A DNA stretch of 64,000 nucleotides from Patescibacteria group bacterium (lineage in GTDB: Bacteria > Patescibacteriota > Doudnabacteria > UBA920), in the NCBI GenBank assembly GCA_036726225.1, contig DAIMCS010000001.1, positions 333,856-397,855 on the forward strand, read 5' to 3'. This document shows positions 522-63,528 of the stretch, in pieces (within the stretch, counting starts at the first letter, position 1; every line of letters begins with the position of its first letter). A program made the position numbers and the translations under genes. The notes under the pieces were generated by a model that did no database searches, was not told where the DNA came from, and was given only the letters and a program-made list of their open reading frames with translations.

Positions 522-849
522 TTAAAAAAATTGTCCTGTCCATTTGCGTATGGACAAAAATAATTAATATCTATCAGCCCGCCTTAAAAAGGTGGGTGAT
601 AATCTTTGGGCAGTGGCCTGCTCAGCCGACCGTCAACAAAGATTTGCTCGCAATTAGCAAATTGGAATTAGTGACAAGTAACAGGTGAAAGGTTACATGT
701 AACTAGCTGTAATTTGGTAACTGTTTTGGTTTCTTTGGGAAAACTTAACCTTACTTGTTCATTATACGCCTTTTGGGCTTTGTTGTCAACCCCGTTTTAT
801 GGAAACAGGCCCAAGTTGTTTACGATGCGCTTTATGAAGGAATAACTTT

Positions 850-1194
850 ATGCCAAACAATAGTAATGATTTTTATCAAAATAGTGAGGGTTTAAAGCTT
901 AGCACAAGCTTATTAATTCTGCCTGCCGCCTATTTAATTTATAATTTTGTGAATTTTCTGTCCTGCTACAGAGGCGGGCAGCTAAGTTGCAATATTTATG
1001 ATCTAGCGGTGGTTTTTCCGCTTTACGCGGTGGTTACCTCTTTTTTTGGCAGGATTAATTTTTTTACTTATATATTACTTTATCTGCTTAGTTCGGCAGT
1101 GTATTTAATTATTTTTTACCATTTCGGCGTTTGGTTAGAAAGCGCATATCAGCGGCAAAAGCAGCGACCCAATTTTACCTTAAAGAGAGTTTGA
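850..1194 (+). CDS. hypothetical small integral membrane protein
   Basis: 114-aa ORF with several hydrophobic stretches (LLILPAAYLIYNFVNFL, FTYILLYLLSSAVYLIIFY). No recognisable motif. Confidence 0.3.
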   Translation: MPNNSNDFYQNSEGLKLSTSLLILPAAYLIYNFVNFLSCYRGGQLSCNIYDLAVVFPLYAVVTSFFGRINFFTYILLYLLSSAVYLIIFYHFGVWLESAYQRQKQRPNFTLKRV

Positions 1195-3373: not shown

Positions 3374-3595
3374 TTATACAAACAACAAGGTTAAATTAAG
3401 GGCAAGGAAAATTATTCCTAAAACTATAGTTGCAAAAAATAACCATTTTTCAAAACCCCGGCGGGTTTGTACAATATTACCTGCTCCGCCAAAAACGTTG
3501 GACAGCCCGGAAGATTTGTTCTGTACAGCAATTACTACAATTAACAAAACCATAATTAAAATGTTTGCAAACTTCAAAACTAAGCCTAATTTCAT
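3374..3595 (-). CDS. secG: preprotein translocase subunit SecG
   Basis: 73-aa protein with two transmembrane helices. Its central QNKSSGLSNVFGGAGNIVQTRRGFEKWL region matches the Gram-positive SecG pattern ([29 protein letters not shown]). Confidence 0.75.
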   Translation of the reverse strand: MKLGLVLKFANILIMVLLIVVIAVQNKSSGLSNVFGGAGNIVQTRRGFEKWLFFATIVLGIIFLALNLTLLFV

Positions 3596-3737
3596 AAAGT
3601 AAAAGATTTAATTTAGCTCGTGCATTATACTAGGGAAGCATTATGTATGTCAATGCTCATTTATGGCGTAATAATTTTGGAAATCCCGGAATTATGGTAT
3701 ACTAAATAGGTTAAAATAACTACTTTTGGTAATTTAA

Positions 3738-4118
3738 ATGGATTTAGAAACAGCAAAAAAAATAAAAAAAATATTGGTGGTAGAGGACGAAAAGCCTCTA
3801 AATAATGCTTTGCAGTTGGCTTTAAAGCACGCCGGTTTTGAAACCACGCCCGCCTTTGACGGGGAAGATGCTTTAAACAAACTGTCTCAAAATAAATTCG
3901 ACATTGTGCTTTTGGACCTTTTACTCCCGAAAATGACGGGATTTGACGTGATGGCCAAAATGTCCGAGAAGCACGATTTGACCCCGGTAATTGTAATTAC
4001 TAATTTAGGCCAGGAAGAAAGCCGAAAAGAGGCTACTGGTTTGGGCGCAATAAAGTATCTGGTCAAAAGTGAAACCAGCATTGCCGATATAGTCAAACAA
4101 GTGCAAAATTTCAACTAA
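3738..4118 (+). CDS. response regulator, stand-alone receiver (CheY-like) domain
   Basis: Reads ILVVEDEKPL...FDIVLLDLLLPKMTGFDV...KYLVKS. Receiver-domain acidic pocket, phospho-acceptor Asp and conserved Lys are present. No output domain (126 aa). Confidence 0.8.
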   Translation: MDLETAKKIKKILVVEDEKPLNNALQLALKHAGFETTPAFDGEDALNKLSQNKFDIVLLDLLLPKMTGFDVMAKMSEKHDLTPVIVITNLGQEESRKEATGLGAIKYLVKSETSIADIVKQVQNFN

Positions 4119-45186: not shown

Positions 45187-45375
45187 ATGTTTAATCGCTG
45201 ATAGATCGCTGAGTTGGTATTTTAGTTTCAGCGTCCAATCAGCGCTGGTGTTAAGATCAGCGTTTGTTCAGCGTCGATACAATCGCAAGTTTAACCATAA
45301 AAAAAAAGTTTGTCAAACTTAGGGTTGCTTTTTTTAAAGAAAAGATGTATTTTATGGAGTAAACGGAGGTTAGGT

Positions 45376-45498
45376 ATGAAGGCAATGAAGATTGTGGCCG
45401 CCCTCTTTTTTATCGGGGTGATTTTTCTTACCCCACAGGGTAGGCATTTGATTTGGAAGTTTTTGGAGGGCCTCGCCACAGCCGGCAGCGTCAGATGA
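45376..45498 (+). CDS. possible 40-aa small membrane protein
   Basis: Ribosome-binding site GGAGGT 5 nt upstream of the ATG. Reads MKAMKIVAALFFIGVIFLTPQGRHLIWKFLEGLATAGSVR. Confidence 0.3.
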   Translation: MKAMKIVAALFFIGVIFLTPQGRHLIWKFLEGLATAGSVR

Positions 45499-45525
45499 TT
45501 TACAACCTAAGGAGGTAATTGAGAG

Positions 45526-45810
45526 ATGCGTTTTTACTTGCTGGATGCATACGTTTCAAGAAGAACCCGCGCAATCAACAAGCTGCTTGAAAAAGCACGC
45601 AAGGCAACCAAAGGCAATTCCAATGCAAAAGCTCCTATGTCTATTGTGGGGCTGATTCTGGGTTTTGATTTTGTAGCAAGCCTTCCTTCCAAAAGAAGGG
45701 AGCGTAAGGCAAGAAGCGTGCCCGATTCCCGCGCTTTGAGATTGGCCAACAAATCCAGACCCAAACGTCGGGCTCCTAAAATCCCGCTTCATATTCGGCG
45801 GGGTTATTGA
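45526..45810 (+). CDS. hypothetical highly basic 94-aa protein
   Basis: Strong ribosome-binding site AAGGAGGT. The C-terminal half is Arg/Lys-rich (SKRRERKARS...RPKRRAPKIP). Confidence 0.4.
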   Translation: MRFYLLDAYVSRRTRAINKLLEKARKATKGNSNAKAPMSIVGLILGFDFVASLPSKRRERKARSVPDSRALRLANKSRPKRRAPKIPLHIRRGY

Positions 45811-45916
45811 TTCGCGCTGCAACAAGCAGTTTTTGGGCGGAGAGCTGAACTCTCCGCCCAAATTTCATTTTATTATACTTTCTATAAACAGATCCTTCAC
45901 TTCGTTCAGGATAATA

Positions 45917-47077
45917 TTAACGCAACTTCGTTTCGTTAATATTAATTTTTTCTAAGATTTTTTTACTCTCATCAGCCGTGGCCGGGCGGGGAGTGGAGTA
46001 GTTTTCGATAATAACCGGTAAAAGTTCGATCGATTCTAATTCAGCTGGGGTTTTTGAGCCTTGTAGGTCGGATTCTTTATTTTTTGAAATTGTTATTTTA
46101 AGCGTAAGGCCTTCTTTGGTATCTTCACTGAACATTTGGTCAAAAATAAAATTACCCAAAGAGTAGAAAATATACTTACCGTTATATGTTTCTATGGTTT
46201 GCACCCAATGCGGATGGTGCCCTATTACCATGTCTGCTCCGGCATCTATGGCGGCACGCGCAAAGTCGATTTGAGATTGGTTTGGTTTGCGAGTGTATTC
46301 CGTACCCGCATGCATAGTCACAACAACGAAATCTGTTCCATGAGTTTTGGCTTTGCGAATGCTGGATACAAGATTAGCGACTTCCTCAATTCGTGCTACG
46401 TAGTTGTTGGTGGTTTTGCCGTTGTCATTTATGGAAGCATATGATGCTCCAATAAAACTAATTTTTATTCCATTTGCTTCAACCATCTCAGGAAGCCAGG
46501 CATCGCTAGTATCGTGAGGAAGGGTTGAGCCTACCCAACTTGCGCCAATACTTTTAATGTCATTTTGATGTAAAAATTCGTAAGTATATTTAAGTCCATT
46601 CAAACCTTGGTCAAGGGCGTGATTGTTGGCAAGGCTAAGGATTTTAAAATTGTAATCTTTAAGTGGAAGTACGTATTCTTTAGGCGAGCTAAAAACTAAA
46701 GAATGGCCGCCAATTATTCCGCCTGCTTTGGCCACCGGCGTTTCTAAATTGCCAAAATTGAAATCTGTGGATTTTAGTACTGCTGCCATTTTAGAAAAGG
46801 GAAGGTCGGCTTGGCCCGAATCTTTTATTGTCGCCGCAACGTTTCTAGAAAGCATAATGTCGCCCACGGCCAAAAAGGTAGCCGTGGTTTTATTGTTCTG
46901 CGGATCCCTTAAGCTTTGAGCTTTTTGATAAAAATTTTGTAAGTCAGTTTGCAGCGCATCTGCCCCTTGTTCTTTATTTTCAACCAGGTAGTGAGCTGTA
47001 TCTTTGCCGTAGTAAAATAAAGCCGCATTAACCGCCACAAGTGTCAAAGCCAAAGTAATTTTTAATTTAGTATTCAT
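45917..47077 (-). CDS. capA: CapA/PgsA-family metallophosphatase (poly-gamma-glutamate/capsule biosynthesis-type)
   Basis: Reads MHAGTEYTRKPNQSQIDFARAAIDAGADMVIGHHPHWVQ...YSLGNFIFDQ. It has an N-terminal signal anchor. Confidence 0.75.
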   Translation of the reverse strand: MNTKLKITLALTLVAVNAALFYYGKDTAHYLVENKEQGADALQTDLQNFYQKAQSLRDPQNNKTTATFLAVGDIMLSRNVAATIKDSGQADLPFSKMAAVLKSTDFNFGNLETPVAKAGGIIGGHSLVFSSPKEYVLPLKDYNFKILSLANNHALDQGLNGLKYTYEFLHQNDIKSIGASWVGSTLPHDTSDAWLPEMVEANGIKISFIGASYASINDNGKTTNNYVARIEEVANLVSSIRKAKTHGTDFVVVTMHAGTEYTRKPNQSQIDFARAAIDAGADMVIGHHPHWVQTIETYNGKYIFYSLGNFIFDQMFSEDTKEGLTLKITISKNKESDLQGSKTPAELESIELLPVIIENYSTPRPATADESKKILEKININETKLR

Positions 47078-48174
47078 TATCTGTTTAAAATATACTGTTG
47101 TCCGCCTAAATTTTTTACGCGGCCTTTCATTTCCAAAAAGGTCAGAGTGGAGGTGACTTTAGAAGCTTTGAGGCCGGATTCTTTAATAAGCTCGTTTATT
47201 ATGACCGGTTCAAAAGTAAGAAGTTTAAGTATGACCGTCTCATCCGGGCTATCGCCGAATAAATTTTCAGCTTGTTTTTGAAGGGATGAAGCTTCCAAAT
47301 TTAAATCCTGGAATATGTCGTCAGCAGAGGTTACGGCTTTAGCGCCCATTTTTATTAGGTTGTTAGGGCCCTGGCTTTGTTGGCTGTAAATGGGGCCCGG
47401 CACGGCAAACAGCTGCCGGTTTTGGTCAAGCGCATGTTTGGCAGTAATTAGAGTGCCGCTTTCCAGGTCGCATTCAACAACTAAGGTTGCAACCGAAAGC
47501 CCGGAAATAATTCGGTTGCGCGCCACAAAGTTTTGTTTAAAGTTGGGAGTGCCAATAGGATATTCCGAAATTAGGCATCCGCCGGAATCCACAATCTGTT
47601 TGGCTAAAAGCGCATGATGTTTTGGATACAAACTTTTTTCGTCCAGGCCCCCGCCGAGTACGGCAATGGTCCGGCGGCCATTTTTTACGGCAATTTCGTG
47701 GGCCGCAGAGTCCACGCCAAAAGCCATACCTGAAACAATTGTTGCGCCTGCGTCGACTAAGGGTTTGACTAGTTGTGGAATTACAGTTCGTCCATAGTTG
47801 GTAATTTGCCTGGTGCCAACGACGGCAATGCAAAGCTCTTCACTTTCTTCCATAGTGCCTTTGTAGTAAAGTATGGGCGGCAGTTTGGCAATTTCCAAAA
47901 GTAATTTGGGATATTTTTCGTCTCGGAAGCTTAAAATTTTAATTTGCTCGCTTTCCAGTTTTTGTTTTTCAGCTTCCAGATTAATTTGTTGTCTCATTGC
48001 AATAAAACTTTTGGCAACTTCAGCATCTATACCCGCGTTAACTAATTCTGACTGTGAAGCCAGGTAGGCATTGCTAAAATTTCCAAACCGTTTTGCTAAA
48101 AGCATTAAGCGGGCAGGTCCAAAATTCGGTAGGAGGTTTAGGCCGTGTAAATATATAGAGTCAGGAAAAAGCAT
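47077..48174 (-). CDS. dprA: DNA processing protein DprA (Smf)
   Basis: IAVVGTRQITNYGRTV...IVSGMAFGVDSAAHEIAVKNGRRTIAVLGGGLD matches the DprA Rossmann-like core. Confidence 0.85.
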   Translation of the reverse strand: MLFPDSIYLHGLNLLPNFGPARLMLLAKRFGNFSNAYLASQSELVNAGIDAEVAKSFIAMRQQINLEAEKQKLESEQIKILSFRDEKYPKLLLEIAKLPPILYYKGTMEESEELCIAVVGTRQITNYGRTVIPQLVKPLVDAGATIVSGMAFGVDSAAHEIAVKNGRRTIAVLGGGLDEKSLYPKHHALLAKQIVDSGGCLISEYPIGTPNFKQNFVARNRIISGLSVATLVVECDLESGTLITAKHALDQNRQLFAVPGPIYSQQSQGPNNLIKMGAKAVTSADDIFQDLNLEASSLQKQAENLFGDSPDETVILKLLTFEPVIINELIKESGLKASKVTSTLTFLEMKGRVKNLGGQQYILNR

Positions 48175-48204
48175 AAAAATTGCCTAAGTTAAGCCTTTTT
48201 AGCT

Positions 48205-48233
48205 GTTGACATTTAGGCCAAAAAGGAGTATAA
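48205..48233 (+). promoter_or_regulatory. perfect consensus sigma70 promoter TTGACA-N17-TATAAT with no annotated CDS downstream
   Basis: TTGACA at 48205-48210, spacer tttaggccaaaaaggag (17 nt), TATAAT at 48228-48233. Confidence 0.6.
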
Positions 48234-48484
48234 TAGTATAAATAAAAATAAAAAACCAGGAGGCTTTTTTTATTCATTGTATTTTAACATATTGTGTCCG
48301 ACACCCTATTTGCAAGTCGCCAAAGCTGGTATCATCCCTCCTATTACTGGCCAAGGCATCAAGTAAAGGTTTGTAGACGATTGTTTGCAGCCTTTCACTT
48401 GCAGGTAGGGTAGTGGACGGAATTATGAGGAAAGCAACCTTGACGGTTTCTTTCCTCATTACTCCTTTTTTCCCTTCAAAGTTA

Positions 48485-48548
48485 TTTTGCGGACGGAATA
48501 AATCCGATCCGCAAAATGCTACATTAAACGCCTATGGGCGTTTTTTTT
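48485..48548 (+). terminator. two consecutive intrinsic terminators closing the orphan transcript (and flanking the pth 3' end)
   Basis: TTTTGCGGAcggaataaatccgaTCCGCAAAA (9-bp stem) and AACGCCtatgGGCGTTttttttt. Confidence 0.55.
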
Positions 48549-49095
48549 AGGCGGAAATAAATTTTTTTACCTCTTCTTCAACTTTAGGTAAAAGTTCTTT
48601 TCGTACTTTTGAAAGCTCATCTTCGGTAAAATTTTGCAAAACAAAAGCATCTGTGGAAGTTTCGGTCCTAGAAGCCCTGGTTTCTATTCCCACTCTCACT
48701 CTATGGAAATCTTGCGTGCCTAAATTGTCTATTAAGCTCTGCACGCCGTTATGGCCTGCAGAGGAGGAGGAATCGGTAACCCGAATTTCGCCAAAGGGCA
48801 AATCTACCTCATCGTGGATTATGAGCAAATCTTTTTTTAAGTCCAGTTTATAAAAATTACAAATTACTCTAAGCGCCTGGCCGGAGTCGTTCATATAAGT
48901 CTGTGGCTTTAGGAAAATAATTTTTTTTCCATTCATTTCAATTGTGTGGACTTCGGACTTAAAGTCGTGGCTGGGCTTTTCGCGCATAAAGTCATCGCCG
49001 TCATTCAAAATATAATCCACGGCCATAAAGCCCACGTTATGGCGGGTTTTTTCGTATTTTTCTCCCGGGTTGCCCAGGCCGACAATGAGTTTCAT
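48547..49095 (-). CDS. pth: peptidyl-tRNA hydrolase
   Basis: MKLIVGLGNPGEKYEKTRHNVGFMAVD plus conserved His/Asp context. 182 aa. Confidence 0.9.
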   Translation of the reverse strand: MKLIVGLGNPGEKYEKTRHNVGFMAVDYILNDGDDFMREKPSHDFKSEVHTIEMNGKKIIFLKPQTYMNDSGQALRVICNFYKLDLKKDLLIIHDEVDLPFGEIRVTDSSSSAGHNGVQSLIDNLGTQDFHRVRVGIETRASRTETSTDAFVLQNFTEDELSKVRKELLPKVEEEVKKFISA

Positions 49096-57650: not shown

Positions 57651-57679
57651 TTGACAAAACAGTTGTTTTTTGATATAAT
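57651..57679 (+). promoter_or_regulatory. perfect consensus sigma70 promoter TTGACA-N17-TATAAT at the left edge of the G+C-richer island
   Basis: TTGACA at 57651-57656, spacer aaacagttgttttttga (17 nt), TATAAT at 57674-57679. Confidence 0.6.
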
Positions 57680-57805
57680 AGTAAGTTATTGTAGGCATTT
57701 TGTAGCCTTTAAAGTTAGAGGTTATGGATGTGCCCAGCAATACCGCTGGCACTTTTAAACAGCGGTAATTGGGCCGCAATTTTTGAAATTTCAAAGGAGA
57801 GGACA

Positions 57806-59398
57806 ATGAAGAAAGTTCGTGAGTTTTTTGCAGTGGTGCTTTGTATGACCTTGTTTGTTTCCACAACCCAGCCGCTGATGGCGCAACAGGCGCCGCAGGC
57901 ACAACAGAATCCGTTGGTCACAGAACAAAGGATGACTAACGGACAGGTGACCACGGTTTGGCAGCTCATCATCCCGGCACAGCCTGAAGACAGGGATGTC
58001 TTGCAACTAAATCGTCTGGTATACGGTTTTAGTTTGATCCAGAGCGGCGGCAAGGTCACGGAGTTTATAAAGGAGTACCAGGCGCGAGTCGTTCCGCCAA
58101 ACGCCTACATGGAAGCCGCCAGTTTGGTGATCCAGTACGCGGGCAACCGTGTGCTCACCGACCCGGTGGACACCATCGGCTTTGGACCGAACGACGTTCA
58201 GATTATCAGGACTGCGGATGAAATTCGCAGGTACTATGATTTGAACCCCGGCAGCTTTAGCCCCGTACTTTGGCAGCGCGACCCCATTGGCGACTGCGTG
58301 ATTGTTCAGCGAAGGGATTTGCTGAAAAACGCCGACGCCATTGAGGCCCGGATCCAAAAAATTTTTGCCAGCGAGCCGAACAAGGCTCAGGCATGGATTC
58401 GGGCTTTCCGGTCTTGTGCCAACCAGAACGGCGACAGCCCTACATGTAGGGACGTTCGCGTGGCCGACTTCCCATTCCTACAACGCAATCACGGCAGGAA
58501 TAGCGTTGGAGAGAATGAGCGGTACGATCCAAGAACAACCAACCGTCCGGATGCCCACATGACAATTTATTGGGTGCCGGAATTAAACACCTGGAAGGGT
58601 AATGGCTGGGAATGTTGCGGTAACCCCTTGGAGTTTTTTGTCTCCTTGAGGCTTACTGCCAACGTTATCACCAAGCTCGTCCAGACCCCGCAGTTCGACT
58701 GCATGGTCATGCTGGATAAGAACGTGTTGTCCAGCAGGGCGGATGTTGCGACTGCCCGACTGACCCTTACCCCGCCTCAGAATCCGGACGACGTTTTGGT
58801 AGACTGGTTTTTAAACGGTCTGCCCTTAGGTCGAAACCAGATGATGGTTGATGTTTCCGGGGCTGCGGTCACCCAGCTTGATACCGATCAAACAGTATTG
58901 GCTGTGGTGGCTGTCGGCGACAAGGAAGTGCGCTGTTCAGGCCCTATCCGTCTACATCTTGATGTTCAGCTAGTACCCATCACGTATCGTTGCACCATTA
59001 CGCTGGACAAGCGCAAGCTTGTCGACCGCGATGATGTGGCAAACGCCCGGCTCACCATTACCCCCACGCCCAAAGAAACACCCCGGGTCGATTGGCATCT
59101 TAGAAAGATGCCAATAGGCAAGGATACCATGACTGTCCAAATCAAGGGCAGACAGTTGGGCGCGCCGGACACTGACCACGACGTGCTGGCATCGGCCACG
59201 GTGGAAGGGAGAGTCGTCGAGTGTCTGGAGACCGTCTCTTTCACCCAACCTCCCGGCGGTAATGGCAAGAAGATAGGTATAGCAGCCGGTATTGGAGCTG
59301 CTATCGTGGCGGCCGTCTTTGCAACAAGGGGCAAGGACTCTCGGCCGGTTCCTACCGGTAACCCGATCAAGACGGATCCGGAGGTTATCCGACGTTAA
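57806..59398 (+). CDS. secreted Cys-rich protein of unknown function with two ~90-aa internal repeats and a C-terminal transmembrane anchor (start at MKKVREFF)
   Basis: Signal peptide MKKVREFFAVVLCMTLFVSTTQPLMAQQ. The repeats are CMVMLDKNVLSSRADVATARLTLTPPQNP...VDWFLNGLPLGRNQMMVDV and CTITLDKRKLVDRDDVANARLTITPTPKE...VDWHLRKMPIGKDTMTV. C-terminal IGIAAGIGAAIVAAVFA. Confidence 0.55.
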   Translation: MKKVREFFAVVLCMTLFVSTTQPLMAQQAPQAQQNPLVTEQRMTNGQVTTVWQLIIPAQPEDRDVLQLNRLVYGFSLIQSGGKVTEFIKEYQARVVPPNAYMEAASLVIQYAGNRVLTDPVDTIGFGPNDVQIIRTADEIRRYYDLNPGSFSPVLWQRDPIGDCVIVQRRDLLKNADAIEARIQKIFASEPNKAQAWIRAFRSCANQNGDSPTCRDVRVADFPFLQRNHGRNSVGENERYDPRTTNRPDAHMTIYWVPELNTWKGNGWECCGNPLEFFVSLRLTANVITKLVQTPQFDCMVMLDKNVLSSRADVATARLTLTPPQNPDDVLVDWFLNGLPLGRNQMMVDVSGAAVTQLDTDQTVLAVVAVGDKEVRCSGPIRLHLDVQLVPITYRCTITLDKRKLVDRDDVANARLTITPTPKETPRVDWHLRKMPIGKDTMTVQIKGRQLGAPDTDHDVLASATVEGRVVECLETVSFTQPPGGNGKKIGIAAGIGAAIVAAVFATRGKDSRPVPTGNPIKTDPEVIRR

Positions 59399-59440
59399 CC
59401 ACGAACTCTTGACTGATAGCAAGAAAATCTACTATCGGAA

Positions 59441-59471
59441 GGCTCGAAACTCTATGTTTCGGGCCTTTTTT
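59441..59471 (+). terminator. intrinsic terminator
   Basis: GGCTCGAAACtctatgGTTTCGGGCCtttttt. Confidence 0.55.
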
Positions 59472-59590
59472 ATTTGCCTAATTTATGAGGGAAATGTGGA
59501 AATTCTCGCTTGGTAACCTTTACTTTGAGGTTTTCGATATATATAATAATGTGACCAAAATTGCACTTTCCAACCCAATAGGAGGACCAA

Positions 59591-60778
59591 ATGTCAGCAA
59601 GAATGACGTTATTCGGATTGATGTTTTTGTCGATTTTCAGCTTAGCCGTTCCGGCTTACGCGACTGACAATACGGAATTTTCCTTGCCTAAGGGCTGGAA
59701 TCCTAGTTGGGTTGCCCGACTCGTTACAGGTGAAAAGGCGAACTTCGCCAAGTTTACCTTTTTCCATCCCAATGGCAGACAAATAATTCTGTTCGACAAA
59801 GCAGGCAAGCTGACCGATAAGCAATACCGTTTACCTGTCAACACCAAGATAGTTATTCCGGAAAATCTTGTTATGACAAAGCAAGTTGCCGCAAGCGGAA
59901 AGACGCTTGCGCAGCTGTGCAGCCAGTACCGTGTTAGCACGTCGGATTGTTTGGAGGTTCGCACCGCGAACCGCCTTGCCAATCTGAATGCAAAAATAGC
60001 AGGCGACGTCAGAATTCCCGTGTGGTTTTCTGTTGTAGATGTTGCCGCACTGCCGGTTCCCCCGGGTTTCCAAACCTTAGGGGGCGTTGCTGTCGACTCG
60101 TCTAAAGTTCGTCCGGCTTTTCCCGTTGCGGAGTTGCCGCCGTCGAATTGGTCAGATGACCCGAGTTTGCTTATTGCAACAACTGCGGTTGTTCTGCTCT
60201 TAGCAGCGGTGTTGTTATTCATAATATTTCGTCCTGCTTTTGCTTTGCCTTATCTTAAACTACCGACATGGCTTAATATCTCCTGGCCTTTCCAAGCATG
60301 GCCTAACATATCATATTCTAAATACATACCCAGCCTGGCCTGGCCTAACATACAGTTACCCGGCTTTAAAAAGACAGTTAGCTTTTTTATGCCGGACAGA
60401 AACCGCCCATATAACATAGCAACATACTTTCGCCGAATGAGCAGGGACGATCTGGACGCATGCGTACTGTTTAAACAGGCTTTTGTGGACTATCTGGCGA
60501 GCGCAAATACTTACAGAGTACGCGAGCTGGACTTAACCGGATCCCAGGTTTTCCGTAACGGAACAGTTTGTTTGACCGTATACGGAAAAGGAAACAACAA
60601 CTTCCCCAACCTTAGGGACCACGCCCAAAACGTTGACCAGGCTGTCAAAAGTTTTATGAACGAACCAGAAGCGAAAAGTTTTTTGTTAGTGGACGCGCAG
60701 GCAGTTCACTCCGAAAAACTGGACAAAGATGGTGTGAAATTCGAATTTTGGCTTAGACCCAACTTAAAAAAGGAGTAA
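59591..60778 (+). CDS. signal-peptide protein with a LysM-like domain, a single transmembrane helix and a cytoplasmic domain with AWPNI repeats; unknown function
   Basis: Signal peptide MSARMTLFGLMFLSIFSLAVPAYA. LysM-like ...QVAASGKTLAQLCSQYRVSTSDCLEVRTANRLANLNAKIAGDVRIPV. Transmembrane helix LLIATTAVVLLLAAVLLFIIF. Repeats WPFQAWPNISYSKYIPSLAWPNIQLPGF. Strong ribosome-binding site AGGAGG. Confidence 0.5.
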   Translation: MSARMTLFGLMFLSIFSLAVPAYATDNTEFSLPKGWNPSWVARLVTGEKANFAKFTFFHPNGRQIILFDKAGKLTDKQYRLPVNTKIVIPENLVMTKQVAASGKTLAQLCSQYRVSTSDCLEVRTANRLANLNAKIAGDVRIPVWFSVVDVAALPVPPGFQTLGGVAVDSSKVRPAFPVAELPPSNWSDDPSLLIATTAVVLLLAAVLLFIIFRPAFALPYLKLPTWLNISWPFQAWPNISYSKYIPSLAWPNIQLPGFKKTVSFFMPDRNRPYNIATYFRRMSRDDLDACVLFKQAFVDYLASANTYRVRELDLTGSQVFRNGTVCLTVYGKGNNNFPNLRDHAQNVDQAVKSFMNEPEAKSFLLVDAQAVHSEKLDKDGVKFEFWLRPNLKKE

Positions 60779-60782
60779 ACAG

Positions 60783-62525
60783 ATGTATCTCATCGTACCC
60801 GGTACAGGTGATGGCGGCGGCAATATGACACTGCACCACGCCTGGGGATTGCATGGATGGCTTCAATTTTTAGAGCGGTGCGGCAGACGAAACCTCGCAG
60901 GTTTTGTGCGGGAAGAGACCAAATTCTTCTTCATCAATTCGGTGAAGGAGACTTTGAAGAACGTCGTCAAACGTATGCCTCCCGGCCTTCAGGTAGGCAC
61001 ACTGCTTTTGGAAGGCTTGAAAGACGGCACCGGACAAGAACCGGAAGTAGCCAGAGACGCCGCCGAAAAGACAATAAAATCGGGAAAAGTGGCGGAGCTG
61101 CTTTTGGAAGGGAAACCCGTTGTTTGCGTGCACAACCAGGCCTTTGGTCAAGGGGGGACGGGCTTGGGAGCCGGACCGCTTTTGACCCGGTACTTTCGGG
61201 ATGAGTTAGGCCTGATGACCATACCCAACATAACCACTTCCTCGGTTATGACCCACCAGGTAAATTTTACGCAAAGCAAATACATTAACGGGGTTATGGA
61301 TGAACACGCAGAGGCTGGCATCTCCGTCGCCCATTTCAGTACGGATTCGATTTTTGAAAGGGACGACGTTACGCCGGAGGAAGCGTTTGCGGAAATGGAC
61401 AGGCTGCAGGCAGCAATGTTTGGCCCGACTGTCAGGTGGCTGTCGCATCCCAGCCGCGTTGATTATATGGACTTGATGAGGAAAATTTACTTCAACCCCA
61501 AAGGCTCCAAGGCCAGATCATGGCTCATCTCCTGTGTGCCGGCCTGGGGTAATTCGTCCGTCCAAATTGTCAACCAGCTGTTAAACAACCGGTACTGCGT
61601 TTTCGAACTCGCAGAAGCCGGCGGCGGTGTGCTGATTGTTGAGGGGAAACTCTCCGCAAAGGCATATGCCGGAATCCTCTCTGAATTGACTGCCCGTATA
61701 AACTCCGTTTACGGAGGCAAAGACGGCAACCCCAACTTTACCATAAAAGATGTTTGGCTTCCCGGAAGCGAAACCGAACCAAATATCGGTTTGTGGTTGG
61801 GGACTTTCAATGGCAGCATTCCGATTAAGCAGGTGCCGCGTTTAGACCTGGCAGACAGAATGGGTGCAATTGAAATCGTGGAAGACGGAGATAAGGCATC
61901 TCAACCTCAAGCAGAAGCTCCGGCGTCAGTTGCGGTTGCCCTCACCGCTGTCGACGTGGCAGAACAACCCCCCGCCCCGCCCCCACCGCCAGACCCCGAG
62001 ATGCTGGAATTTAAAGACAAGTTCTTTTCGGAAGCCACCAGGCCCGAAGAGATCACCTTTGCAGCTCTCGTGAGAAAGGCGGAATCCAACGGCGAGACTA
62101 CCAAGCAACTGCTTCAGCACCAAGAGGCCTCCACGGTCTTGTCGTTGATGCAGGCGGTCCGTACGTTTCTGGAACCGACTGACAAAGGCTACAGCCCGTC
62201 TTGGAAAGAGCTTGCGTCGGTGTTCAAGATTCTAGGTAGGCTTCAGCGCAGCGGCGGGGTGCATACCTCCTGGAAAGATGCTTTGCTCCAGGCCATCCGG
62301 AATGACCTGGGCTGCTTTAAAGGGCCCAAAGAAGTCGCCAACAACGGCGCTTCGGCGAGCTACAAAATTGGCGATTCTACTCCCATTGGGCTTATCAGAA
62401 CTTATGCGGCCAAAAGTGGCGACAGCTTCGACATAGCCAGGTTCTACGAGGGGTGTTATGACTTTTTGGGACCGGAGGTCTACAAAAATCTCTGGATCAC
62501 AAGTTCGGAACCTGTCGTAGCCTAA
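60783..62525 (+). CDS. 580-aa cytoplasmic-type protein of unknown function: N-terminal ~360-aa domain, PPAPPPPPDPE linker, C-terminal ~170-aa domain
   Basis: No signal peptide and no recognised motif. It starts 4 nt after the previous stop codon, which suggests an operon. Confidence 0.5.
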   Translation: MYLIVPGTGDGGGNMTLHHAWGLHGWLQFLERCGRRNLAGFVREETKFFFINSVKETLKNVVKRMPPGLQVGTLLLEGLKDGTGQEPEVARDAAEKTIKSGKVAELLLEGKPVVCVHNQAFGQGGTGLGAGPLLTRYFRDELGLMTIPNITTSSVMTHQVNFTQSKYINGVMDEHAEAGISVAHFSTDSIFERDDVTPEEAFAEMDRLQAAMFGPTVRWLSHPSRVDYMDLMRKIYFNPKGSKARSWLISCVPAWGNSSVQIVNQLLNNRYCVFELAEAGGGVLIVEGKLSAKAYAGILSELTARINSVYGGKDGNPNFTIKDVWLPGSETEPNIGLWLGTFNGSIPIKQVPRLDLADRMGAIEIVEDGDKASQPQAEAPASVAVALTAVDVAEQPPAPPPPPDPEMLEFKDKFFSEATRPEEITFAALVRKAESNGETTKQLLQHQEASTVLSLMQAVRTFLEPTDKGYSPSWKELASVFKILGRLQRSGGVHTSWKDALLQAIRNDLGCFKGPKEVANNGASASYKIGDSTPIGLIRTYAAKSGDSFDIARFYEGCYDFLGPEVYKNLWITSSEPVVA

Positions 62526-62551
62526 AAGCCTATTCTTGCGTTTTGCATAAT

Positions 62552-62603
62552 CCCCCAAACTTTTTTTGCGCATTCTGCGTTTAGAAGTTTGGGGGATTGT
62601 TTT
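62552..62603 (+). terminator. intrinsic terminator with an 11-bp perfect stem
   Basis: CCCCCAAACTTtttttgcgcattctgcgtttagAAGTTTGGGGGattgtttt. Confidence 0.6.
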
Positions 62604-62754
62604 ATATCCCATTGACTAAAGTTAAAATTTTTGGTATAAATTAAGGCTATCTATAACTTATTATTTTGTTTTGGTTTTGTAAGTTAATTAAGGAAAATTA
62701 ACGTACGGGACCAGGCCAAAATGTGGTCTAGAACAAAATTCAACGGAGGCAGTT

Positions 62755-63528
62755 ATGAAAAAGATGATGATTCAGGTTTTGGTGATTTTTGCATTAGTGC
62801 TGTTTTTTGCAAACTTCGGTCTTGCTGCCGGGTGCGACATTCGTGTTCTGCCCAGCGCTAACGGTCCGATGCAGGCTTTGGTTGACGCAGGAATGAGCGT
62901 TAACCTGCTGTACGCTTTAAGGCATTCGGACGGTCGGGCAATTGATCCCAGTGAGCACAAAAAACTTTATGACCCTTACTTTTGTCTGGCAGAAGGCGCA
63001 AAGCCGGACAGTAAAAAAACTTCGGCTCTGCTGAAGTCGGCAGATGGAATTAGCCAGACGGCTGTGCAATCTGCGGCAGCCTGTTCTGCTACCGGCTGTG
63101 AAGAAAAACTTGCGGCGGTAAAAGCCGAGGTTAGCTCTTTGCAGAACCGGCTCAACGGCAAGTCGGACGAACTTGCGGCCGCAGACCGCTTAATAAAAGA
63201 GCTGAAGGGAGACGGGAGCAAAACCAAGCTTAAAACAGATGTTTCGGAAACGGACGATCCGGTTACGCTCGATGCGCTTCGGTACGAGCTTAAAAAAGTT
63301 CGAGAACAGCGAGACCAAAGAATCTCCAGATGGGGGTTACTTTGGGTTCTGCCCGCATTTATTGTCGGCGGGGGGTTAGGCCTTTTTAGAAATCGTAAAG
63401 CATTAAAAGATTCGCAAAATGAGCAGGGTTTTTTACGCAGGGAAAACCGCAAGCTAAAATCACAAGTCAGCGAATATGAACTGCTGCTCGTTGGTAGGGA
63501 TGATAAATCCCACCGCACCCGCTTTTGA
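62755..63528 (+). CDS. secreted/anchored coiled-coil protein of unknown function
   Basis: Signal peptide MKKMMIQVLVIFALVLFFANFGLAAG. A Cys-containing N-terminal domain, then a coiled coil (LAAVKAEVSSLQNRLNGKSDELAAADRLIKELK), a transmembrane helix LLWVLPAFIVGGGLGLF and a basic tail. Confidence 0.5.
   Translation: MKKMMIQVLVIFALVLFFANFGLAAGCDIRVLPSANGPMQALVDAGMSVNLLYALRHSDGRAIDPSEHKKLYDPYFCLAEGAKPDSKKTSALLKSADGISQTAVQSAAACSATGCEEKLAAVKAEVSSLQNRLNGKSDELAAADRLIKELKGDGSKTKLKTDVSETDDPVTLDALRYELKKVREQRDQRISRWGLLWVLPAFIVGGGLGLFRNRKALKDSQNEQGFLRRENRKLKSQVSEYELLLVGRDDKSHRTRF

Follow-up and report, generated by a model that had tools for sequence, protein, structure and literature searches.

The C-rich-loop regulatory small RNAs (sRNAs) of Firmicutes, RsaE/RoxS and the UCCC-motif sRNAs of Staphylococcus aureus, are stand-alone transcripts with their own promoter and terminator, and their unpaired C-rich loop motifs pair with G-rich or Shine-Dalgarno (SD) sites (PMC6158497). 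The raiA motif RNA of Bacillota and Actinomycetota, which is about 200 nt long and has helices P1-P8 plus pseudoknots, combines strong covariation and abundant-looking independent transcription with an orphan function, and it sits between comFC and raiA (PMC10861870). 6S RNA is widely conserved, largely double-stranded and of the housekeeping type, with a strong sigma-70 promoter. Here we describe an RNA that can be set beside all three. It is encoded on the plus strand, between the genes for DprA (dprA) and peptidyl-tRNA hydrolase (pth), in a 64-kb stretch of DNA (64,000 nucleotides, hereafter the window) from contig DAIMCS010000001.1 of a Patescibacteria group bacterium assigned to the Doudnabacteria, one of the lineages of the Candidate Phyla Radiation (CPR).

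Like RsaE/RoxS, this RNA is an independent, terminator-ended transcript with an unpaired C-rich loop (UCAUCCCUCCUAU), and its long form, the one present in the window, likewise has two C/U-rich unpaired stretches. However, the two share no homology of sequence or structure, there being no Rfam match at E<=10, and what we describe is built as a three-way junction, closed by a 25-bp helix and linked by conserved junction strands, and is found in several candidate phyla. With the raiA motif it has in common independent transcription, strong covariation, an orphan function and a fixed site beside a competence gene and a translation-related gene (here dprA and pth), but its conserved part is 131 nt long with three helices, its hosts are CPR bacteria and no Rfam raiA match was obtained. 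6S RNA is of similar size and character, although our RNA has no two-sided central bubble and no match to the 6S covariance model, and 6S RNA is not known to have a counterpart of the C-rich hairpin loop. By analogy, the C-rich-loop sRNAs of Firmicutes appear closest in function, and orphan structured RNAs such as the raiA motif closest in overall character; we regard the RNA as a new family of a known general kind, the bacterial structured small RNA.

A conserved RNA gene on the plus strand

The original prediction for this locus was of either a small RNA gene or a small-peptide gene. Our analysis, which covered the 64 kb of the host genome and about 8 kb for each relative, bears out the former: dozens of related genomes and contigs share a 131-nt core whose sequence, structure, strand, promoter and terminator have all been kept. 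Positions 48206-48548 (+) are an independent gene for a structured non-coding RNA (ncRNA), and we hold it to be nearly certain that a genuine, conserved ncRNA gene lies on this strand. The conserved unit, at 48292-48422 (+), is narrower than the stretch first noted and folds as a three-way junction.

When the Pth protein was used as a query, 80 loci were obtained from species-representative genomes, the twelve closest of which (54-71% identity in Pth) are mostly labelled Candidatus Doudnabacteria, which places the window in that CPR/Patescibacteria lineage. Downstream of pth in those twelve loci and in one other (L027) there is a segment that is 75-90% identical at the DNA level to 48287-48417 of the window, so that conservation of the core exceeds that of the flanking proteins, and dprA comes next in all 13. 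Read in the orientation of the window, the intergenic regions of these 13 relatives consist of a TTGACA-N17-TAnnnT promoter, a variable spacer, the core and, in most cases, a terminator hairpin. For wider collections, a scan pattern was built from the columns that are invariant in this independently collected, Pth-derived set, and by that pattern 37 further metagenome contigs carry the core. The same pattern had 0 matches in viral contigs, and a phage origin was rejected.

With a covariance model, nine further Pth loci proved to hold diverged copies (E 1e-5 to 1e-17). Their labels are Parcubacteria (L014), Nealsonbacteria (L061), Wildermuthbacteria (L038), Kuenenbacteria (L013), Patescibacteria/Parcubacteria group (L058 and L073) and, for L028, L040 and L023, Saccharibacteria or Gammaproteobacteria, labels that look doubtful for these three since their gene order fits CPR loci. 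The taxonomic labels are probably wrong for L023 and L040 (uncultured Gammaproteobacteria) and for L028, L003-L005 and L012 (Saccharibacteria), because these loci share both the LytR_cpsA_psr-der-pth-RNA order and Pth similarity with CPR loci of Parcubacteria and Doudnabacteria. In the NCBI taxonomy, Doudnaibacteriota, Kueneniibacteriota and Wildermuthiibacteriota are separate candidate phyla, and on the strength of these sequence matches the RNA family is present in Doudnabacteria and in several candidate phyla of the Parcubacteria group. A second model that included the distant members found no more copies near pth among the remaining 58 loci, with copies elsewhere in those genomes possible; none was seen near pth in Levybacteria/Microgenomates, Saccharibacteria, Magasanikbacteria, Peribacteria or the non-CPR loci. 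Conservation and covariation in related genomes, the comparison that the original prediction had proposed, were both found for the core of the region.

Fold, covariation and strand

The consensus fold was derived with RNAalifold from an alignment of 44 distinct sequences (mean column identity 77%). Its closing helix, P1, has 25 bp (48292-48317 with 48397-48422), with double, compensatory changes at 13 of the 25 pairs and 96% of cells paired. The strand J1/2 that follows (48318-48324) has the consensus GCGAAAG, CGCCAAA in the window, in which the G and the A-rich positions vary little or not at all within the alignment. P2 (48325-48351) is a hairpin with a 7-bp stem (48325-48331 with 48345-48351) and a 13-nt loop, 48332-48344, whose core CCCUCCU resembles the anti-SD sequence; all seven of the stem pairs covary while the loop that they enclose stays invariant. 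Among the 14 sequences gathered through Pth alone, and hence without reference to that motif, CATCCCTCCTA is invariant, and in every homologue that we folded the loop is 12-13 nt long and predicted to be unpaired. J2/3 (48352-48364) has a conserved A-G-C ... C-A-A-G, in which C68, A72, A73 and G74 (first-sequence numbering) are invariant in the alignment, and may contain a 2-bp mini-helix (48356-57 with 48363-64), the corresponding pairs 71/80 and 72/79 being standard in 97.7% of cells. The third helix, P3 (48365-48395), pairs 48365-48377 with 48384-48395 over about 11-13 bp around a variable loop, with compensatory changes at 8 of 11 pairs, and J3/1 is the single nucleotide C at 48396.

In total, compensatory changes, in which both sides are altered and pairing is kept, occur at 28 of the 45 base pairs of the consensus. 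Standard pairs fill 96.3% of cells, a share that falls to 37-44% once partners are shifted by 1-3 columns, and none of 500 column shuffles reached the observed pairing measures. The metagenome members were picked by a pattern that fixes CATCCCTCCTA, CAAG and GYARRTRGGGT, positions that were already invariant in the 14 Pth-derived sequences.

The diverged copies, folded one by one, have the same architecture. What is retained across the whole set is the loop core YCCCUCCU, GAAA in J1/2, AAG in J2/3 and the helices, the sequence of P1 not being among the retained features; the AUC part of the P2 loop is lost in distant homologues, which have ACCCCUCCUA or GUCCCCUCCUA. Two of them, the Wildermuthbacteria-type homologues L038:4196-4365 (-) and L028:4818-4987 (-), have an extra GC-rich hairpin between J1/2 and P2, giving a four-way junction. 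In both, the covariance model takes this extra hairpin for P2, and the true C-rich loop hairpin (UAUCCCUCCUU) comes after it. Could the loop be occupied within the RNA itself? Pairing with the G-rich strand of P1 or with the junction strands, examined by hand, amounted to at most 4-7 bp, and the sequence of P1 is not conserved in the distant homologues; the idea was rejected.

Folding of a single sequence cannot assign the strand. The folding energy of the 310-nt stretch is -109 kcal/mol, compared with -68 ± 4.5 for shuffled sequences (z = -9.1), and the opposite strand folds equally well (z = -9.25). The family as a whole is more telling, since U·G and G·U pairs, which are A·C mismatches on the other strand, are frequent, and the covariance model scores 132.8 bits on the plus strand of the window and 22.5 bits on the minus strand. 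Both point to an RNA on the plus strand, in agreement with the promoter and terminator, and a minus-strand RNA (the 3' untranslated region of pth or a leader of dprA) was thereby ruled out.

Promoter, flanks and terminator

The perfect promoter of the original prediction is indeed a 12/12 match to a sigma-70-type promoter, although it lies at 48206-48234 (+) and does not begin at 48205: the -35 element TTGACA occupies 48206-48211 and the -10 element TATAAT 48229-48234, with a 17-nt spacer between them. It is the sole 12/12 match in the 9 kb that were scanned (44-53 kb). Perfect TTGACA-N17-TATAAT sites number four in the window against 0.01 expected from shuffles, one more than had been counted, the site at 761-789 on the minus strand having been overlooked; that the site at 48206 is the only one with no coding sequence downstream still holds among the four. 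TTGACA with a 17-nt spacer and a score of at least 10/12 was present in 44 of 44 distinct untruncated members of the family (12/12 in 24, 11/12 in 16 and 10/12 in 4).

Transcription is predicted to start near 48241-48242. In the window there follows a non-conserved 5' leader, 48242-48291 (+), with an A-tract, a weak hairpin (AAAAAACCAGGAGGCUUUUUUU), AGGAGG at 48259-48264 and a TTG at 48277. Leader sequences cannot be aligned among homologues, and the distance from the -10 element to P1 ranges from 16 to 168 nt, which implies that in many species the transcript begins about 10 nt ahead of P1. At the other end, most members have a terminator immediately 3' of P1, and in L073, L023 and L013 the U-tract abuts P1 directly, so that P1 itself can serve as the terminator stem. 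Given the variable leader and the position of the terminator in most members, the RNA of this family should be about 135-175 nt long. The window holds a long form of about 307 nt, with the 50-nt leader and a 3' extension of about 125 nt.

The lineage-specific part of that extension, 48423-48525 (+), comprises hairpin B1 (48425-48459; GAGGAAAG..CUUUCCUC), an unpaired C/U-rich stretch, CUCCUUUUUUCCCUUCAAAG (48462-48481), and hairpin B2 (48485-48516; apex CGGAAUAAAUCCG). B1 is the internal hairpin, GAGGAAAG...CTTTCCTC, that had been pointed out before, and it is present as described. Counterparts of the extension can be recognised only in L002, L006, L008, L103 and L106, where the recurring parts are B1, whose distal stem covaries among the long-form members, the C/U-rich unpaired stretch with ..UCCUUCCC..AAAG, and B2 with the apex CGGAAUNAAUCCG. 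The transcript ends at an intrinsic terminator, 48526-48548 (+), found both in a terminator scan and in the sequence, in which the stem AAACGCC-UAUG-GGCGUUU (48526-48543) is followed by U8. Of the two terminators claimed for this stretch the last hairpin is therefore canonical, but the hairpin at 48485-48516 has no U-tract. The U-tract of the terminator overlaps the stop codon of pth (48547-48549, minus strand), and the element may terminate pth as well.

Absence of a coding function

No open reading frame (ORF) of at least 60 aa is present on the plus strand across 48242-48548, as had been stated for the roughly 300 nt after the promoter. The two small frames that were proposed there do exist with slightly different dimensions: the 29-codon TTG frame spans 48277-48366 and follows AGGAGG by 12 nt, not 13, and the ATG frame from 48425 has 41 codons rather than 40. 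On the minus strand there is a 61-aa ORF at 48274-48459, which has no Pfam match and is riddled with stops in relatives. A six-frame analysis found that any given frame, on either strand, is free of stops in at most 11 of 44 homologues, and 1-nt indels occur within the core. With every frame interrupted in most of the 44 homologues and the AGGAGG/TTG leader absent from many relatives, the small-peptide gene of the original prediction falls away. The AGGAGG, both small frames, the GAGGAAAG hairpin and the second hairpin are lineage-specific, non-conserved flanks of the RNA.

Comparison with catalogued RNA families

Is this a known RNA that has diverged? The Rfam covariance scan suggested at the outset was run, and the core matches no catalogued family. 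Against Rfam 15 the whole window gave two tRNAs only at the gathering score, and 48100-48650 gave only noise at E<=10, the top score being 21.5 bits against a threshold of 52. Nothing other than tRNAs and noise came from the homologous region of L006 (E<=1) or from the loci of 19 relatives (gathering score). ARAGORN found three tRNAs and no transfer-messenger RNA (tmRNA) in the window. These searches agree with the earlier failure to see hallmarks of tmRNA, RNase P RNA, signal recognition particle (SRP) RNA or 6S RNA.

Individual candidates fared no better. The tRNA-like domain and tag frame of a tmRNA were not found, and ARAGORN and Rfam were negative. For RNase P RNA there was no Rfam match and the conserved regions CR-I to CR-V (P4) were not found, GAGGAAAG at 48427 being one arm of a perfect hairpin that most relatives lack. 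SRP RNA, whether 4.5S or large, was likewise rejected for want of an Rfam match and of a helix 8 bearing a GNAR tetraloop and conserved symmetric and asymmetric loops; the P2 loop here is a C-rich 13 nt, and the P3 loop is variable (GAUU, GUCU, UUUA) on a stem that covaries freely. Models of 6S RNA (RF00013 and relatives) gave no match at E<=10 in 48100-48650 or at the gathering score in the window and the 19 loci. By inspection we also considered a hammerhead-like core, for which the GAAA of J1/2 was the lead, and a 5S rRNA-like junction; the order of the junction strands did not agree with the former, helix I of 5S rRNA is far shorter than P1, and Rfam was negative for both. Full-text literature searches, some of them judged only by their top-ranked results, brought up no account of an RNA of this kind in CPR bacteria.

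Gene neighbourhood and other features

Two minus-strand genes, both identified with Pfam, flank the intergenic region at 48175-48546: dprA at 47077-48174 (PF02481, E 1.7e-74, plus the DprA winged-helix domain) and pth at 48547-49095 (PF01195, E 1.9e-57). With both neighbours on the opposite strand, the RNA is not a leader of either, as was originally argued. The wider order is LytR_cpsA_psr - der - pth - RNA (opposite strand) - dprA - PGA_cap - topA, and der/EngA in this neighbourhood has a KH-like domain. Wherever a locus has enough sequence the RNA and pth converge, and dprA is divergent from and adjoins the RNA in all loci of the Doudnabacteria clade with enough flanking DNA. In L028, L058, L040 and L073 dprA is not beside the RNA, and in L013 and L023 the two are separated by 0.9-1.1 kb.

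Several loci have additional elements between the RNA and pth or next to them. A small ORF on the strand of the RNA lies between the two in L097:4293-4544 (-), L110:~3592-3813 (+), L107:~750-850 (+) and L100:173-412 (+); three of the four are hydrophobic with a GGAGG/GGAGGG SD, and by inspection they are apparently unrelated. Short tandem AATTTCC repeats (TTTCCAATTTCCAATTTCC...) occur past the RNA terminator, just beyond the pth stop, in L082, L085, L089 and L090, and inverted TACGAA-like or TAGTA-like arrays occur between the RNA and pth in L001, L084, L087, L098 and L112. Both kinds look like small repeat insertions.

Elsewhere in the window, the minus-strand promoter at 761-789 is followed by an ORF-free leader of about 230 nt, to ~522, with a terminator-like hairpin (UUGUCCAUACGCAAAUGGACAGGACAAUUUUUUU), and then by an ORF that runs off the start of the window and has an RNase J-like N-terminus (..VIPMGGVEEVGENMTAIEFGDDIIVIDMG..HGHLDHIG); the region downstream of this promoter could represent a leader or attenuator of rnj. 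A gap of 730 nt with no convincing ORF (45187-45916) separates topA from the PGA_cap gene and contains a strong 13-bp hairpin at 45832-45862. No Rfam match was obtained for it at E<=1, and it is not conserved in relatives, among which there was one weak nhmmer match, in L094; topA and the PGA_cap gene adjoin directly in L097 and L110.

Discussion

A major question arising from these observations is "How would such an RNA act?" The part of the RNA most likely to do the work is the loop of P2, which is large, unpaired, C-rich and invariant, and the reading that we favour, at a rough probability of 0.35, is that of a trans-acting RNA that uses this anti-SD-like loop on GGAGG(G) sites of mRNAs to lower their translation. 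The RNA would be abundant and act in trans, its rigid junction would display the loop, and the loop would pair with GGAGG(G), that is, with the SD sites of the minority of mRNAs in this organism that have them. Such pairing would compete with binding of the 30S subunit and so reduce translation, much as C-rich-loop sRNAs do in Firmicutes, and in the long form the second unpaired C/U-rich stretch (48462-48481) could add a second pairing site.

Several observations are consistent with this proposal. The CCCUCCU core is one base off the 16S anti-SD sequence ACCUCCU, and if one gap is allowed the loop's AUC-CCUCCU has nine bases identical to AUCACCUCCU, the sequence of the 16S rRNA 3' tail. YCCCUCCU was kept in lineages in which the sequence of P1 has changed. 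SD-like motifs lie at most 20 nt upstream of only 9 of the 47 long ORFs in the window, most starts being preceded by A/T-rich sequence, and SD-led genes therefore form a distinct subset; they cluster at 57728-63528 (including 57728, 59591 with 395 aa, 60783 and 62755) and, to judge from their size and the strong promoter at 57651, probably include highly expressed ones. In the diverged loci L097, L107 and L110 the GGAGG/GGAGGG SD of a small ORF is found shortly downstream on the same strand. Precedent comes from RsaE, whose C-rich motifs pair with G-rich target sites (PMC6158497).

Other results weigh against regulation of mRNAs by base-pairing. When the window was scanned for duplexes with the loop, only chance-level sites came back, none of them at a translation start, and a search of 734 kb of related DNA for the 12-mer complement of the loop brought up no other site that is conserved. 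Within the Doudnabacteria clade the loop is invariant at all 11 positions, whereas SD pairing needs 4-6 nt, and conservation that extends over several candidate phyla and to junction nucleotides is more typical of an RNA partnered by a protein or the ribosome than of a base-pairing sRNA.

These points lead to the strongest of the rival explanations, that the RNA is a decoy or the scaffold of a ribonucleoprotein: the loop would imitate the 16S 3' tail and be bound by a conserved factor that normally recognises that tail, or by the ribosome, or the RNA would be a subunit of some as yet unrecognised housekeeping particle. We consider this possible while doubting it. The breadth of its conservation, the junctions GCGAAAG and AGC..CAAG, the 11-nt invariant loop and the failure to find an mRNA target in either search would all be accounted for, and a consensus promoter is what housekeeping RNAs have. 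Its neighbours, pth and der/EngA with its KH-like domain, are translation or ribosome factors, although that neighbourhood may be mere inherited synteny. Candidate factors are Era, KsgA, bS21 and a KH-type binder of C-rich RNA; the KH domain of Era binds GAUCACCUCC. The likeness to the 16S tail, however, requires the 1-nt gap and loses its AUC in distant homologues. Here the sequence is displayed by a hairpin loop, not by a free 3' end as in 16S rRNA. In its most specific form, a CPR-specific housekeeping RNA that mimics the 16S anti-SD tail and acts as a decoy either for SD sequences or for a 16S-3'-end factor such as Era in organisms most of whose genes have no SD, we think the idea unlikely; if true, translation or 30S maturation would be under a global control that had gone unrecognised.

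Might it instead be the act of transcription that matters? The promoter on the plus strand opposes the direction from pth to dprA, and by cis-antisense action or transcriptional interference it could insulate or repress dprA and, with it, competence. The product is fully complementary to any read-through RNA from pth into dprA, and the arrangement of divergent dprA, RNA and convergent pth recurs in every sufficiently flanked Doudnabacteria-clade locus, in most of which the -35 hexamer lies about 30-40 bp from the dprA start codon. No minus-strand promoter-like site of at least 9/12 was found for dprA in 48175-48546. Interference, however, needs neither a strand-specific structure (G·U pairs; 133 versus 22 bits) nor an invariant loop and junction, and the RNA persists where dprA is non-adjacent (L028, L058, L040 and L073) or at 0.9-1.1 kb (L013 and L023). 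Any effect on dprA may be a side effect and not the function, and we judge this explanation to be quite improbable.

The RNA might also be a diverged form of 6S RNA and bind the RNA polymerase holoenzyme: it is stand-alone and widely conserved, mostly double-stranded, about 135-175 nt in its short forms and driven by a consensus sigma-70 promoter, and no 6S RNA was detected in the sequences examined, which are a small part of each genome. Against this, the core matches no Rfam 6S model even at E<=10, forms a three-way junction with a 1-nt 3' junction strand where a rod with a two-sided central bubble would be expected, and has a distal helix, P3, of merely ~11-13 bp; on its sequence and predicted fold a 6S-like role seems decidedly improbable. 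We think it very unlikely that the RNA is the relic of a riboswitch-like cis-regulatory leader, or one now used in trans, in which the anti-SD loop would sequester a downstream SD. The small hydrophobic ORFs of L097, L107 and L110, 20-110 nt after P1, are placed as such a leader would have them, and the conserved junction could form a ligand pocket. Those three ORFs nevertheless appear unrelated by inspection, a terminator stands between RNA and ORF in L110, and in the window and all Doudnabacteria loci pth is convergent and a terminator is present. That the locus is instead a gene for a small protein is barely credible, for although a 29-codon TTG frame (with AGGAGG 12 nt ahead of it), a 41-codon ATG frame and a 61-aa minus-strand ORF exist, every frame is interrupted by stops in most of the 44 homologues, the core has 1-nt indels, substitutions are compensatory in helices and not at third codon positions, most relatives lack the leader and 3' extension that bear the start codons, and the 61-aa ORF is without a Pfam match.

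Whichever of these functions applies, the RNA adds to what is known of CPR/Patescibacteria, organisms with tiny genomes in which hardly any regulators have been characterised and very few ncRNAs are known. What is new is a covariation-backed three-way junction that, together with its consensus promoter, has been kept across Doudnabacteria and several Parcubacteria-group candidate phyla, with a loop like the sequence by which the ribosome docks on mRNA. It accounts for the stretch between pth and dprA that looks "empty" time and again, and annotation can draw on our alignment and covariance model. If its function is that of an ordinary base-pairing sRNA, then this is a solid new family that brings no new principle. 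In either case the RNA offers a testable handle on the control of translation or ribosome assembly in bacteria in which SD sequences serve a minority of genes.

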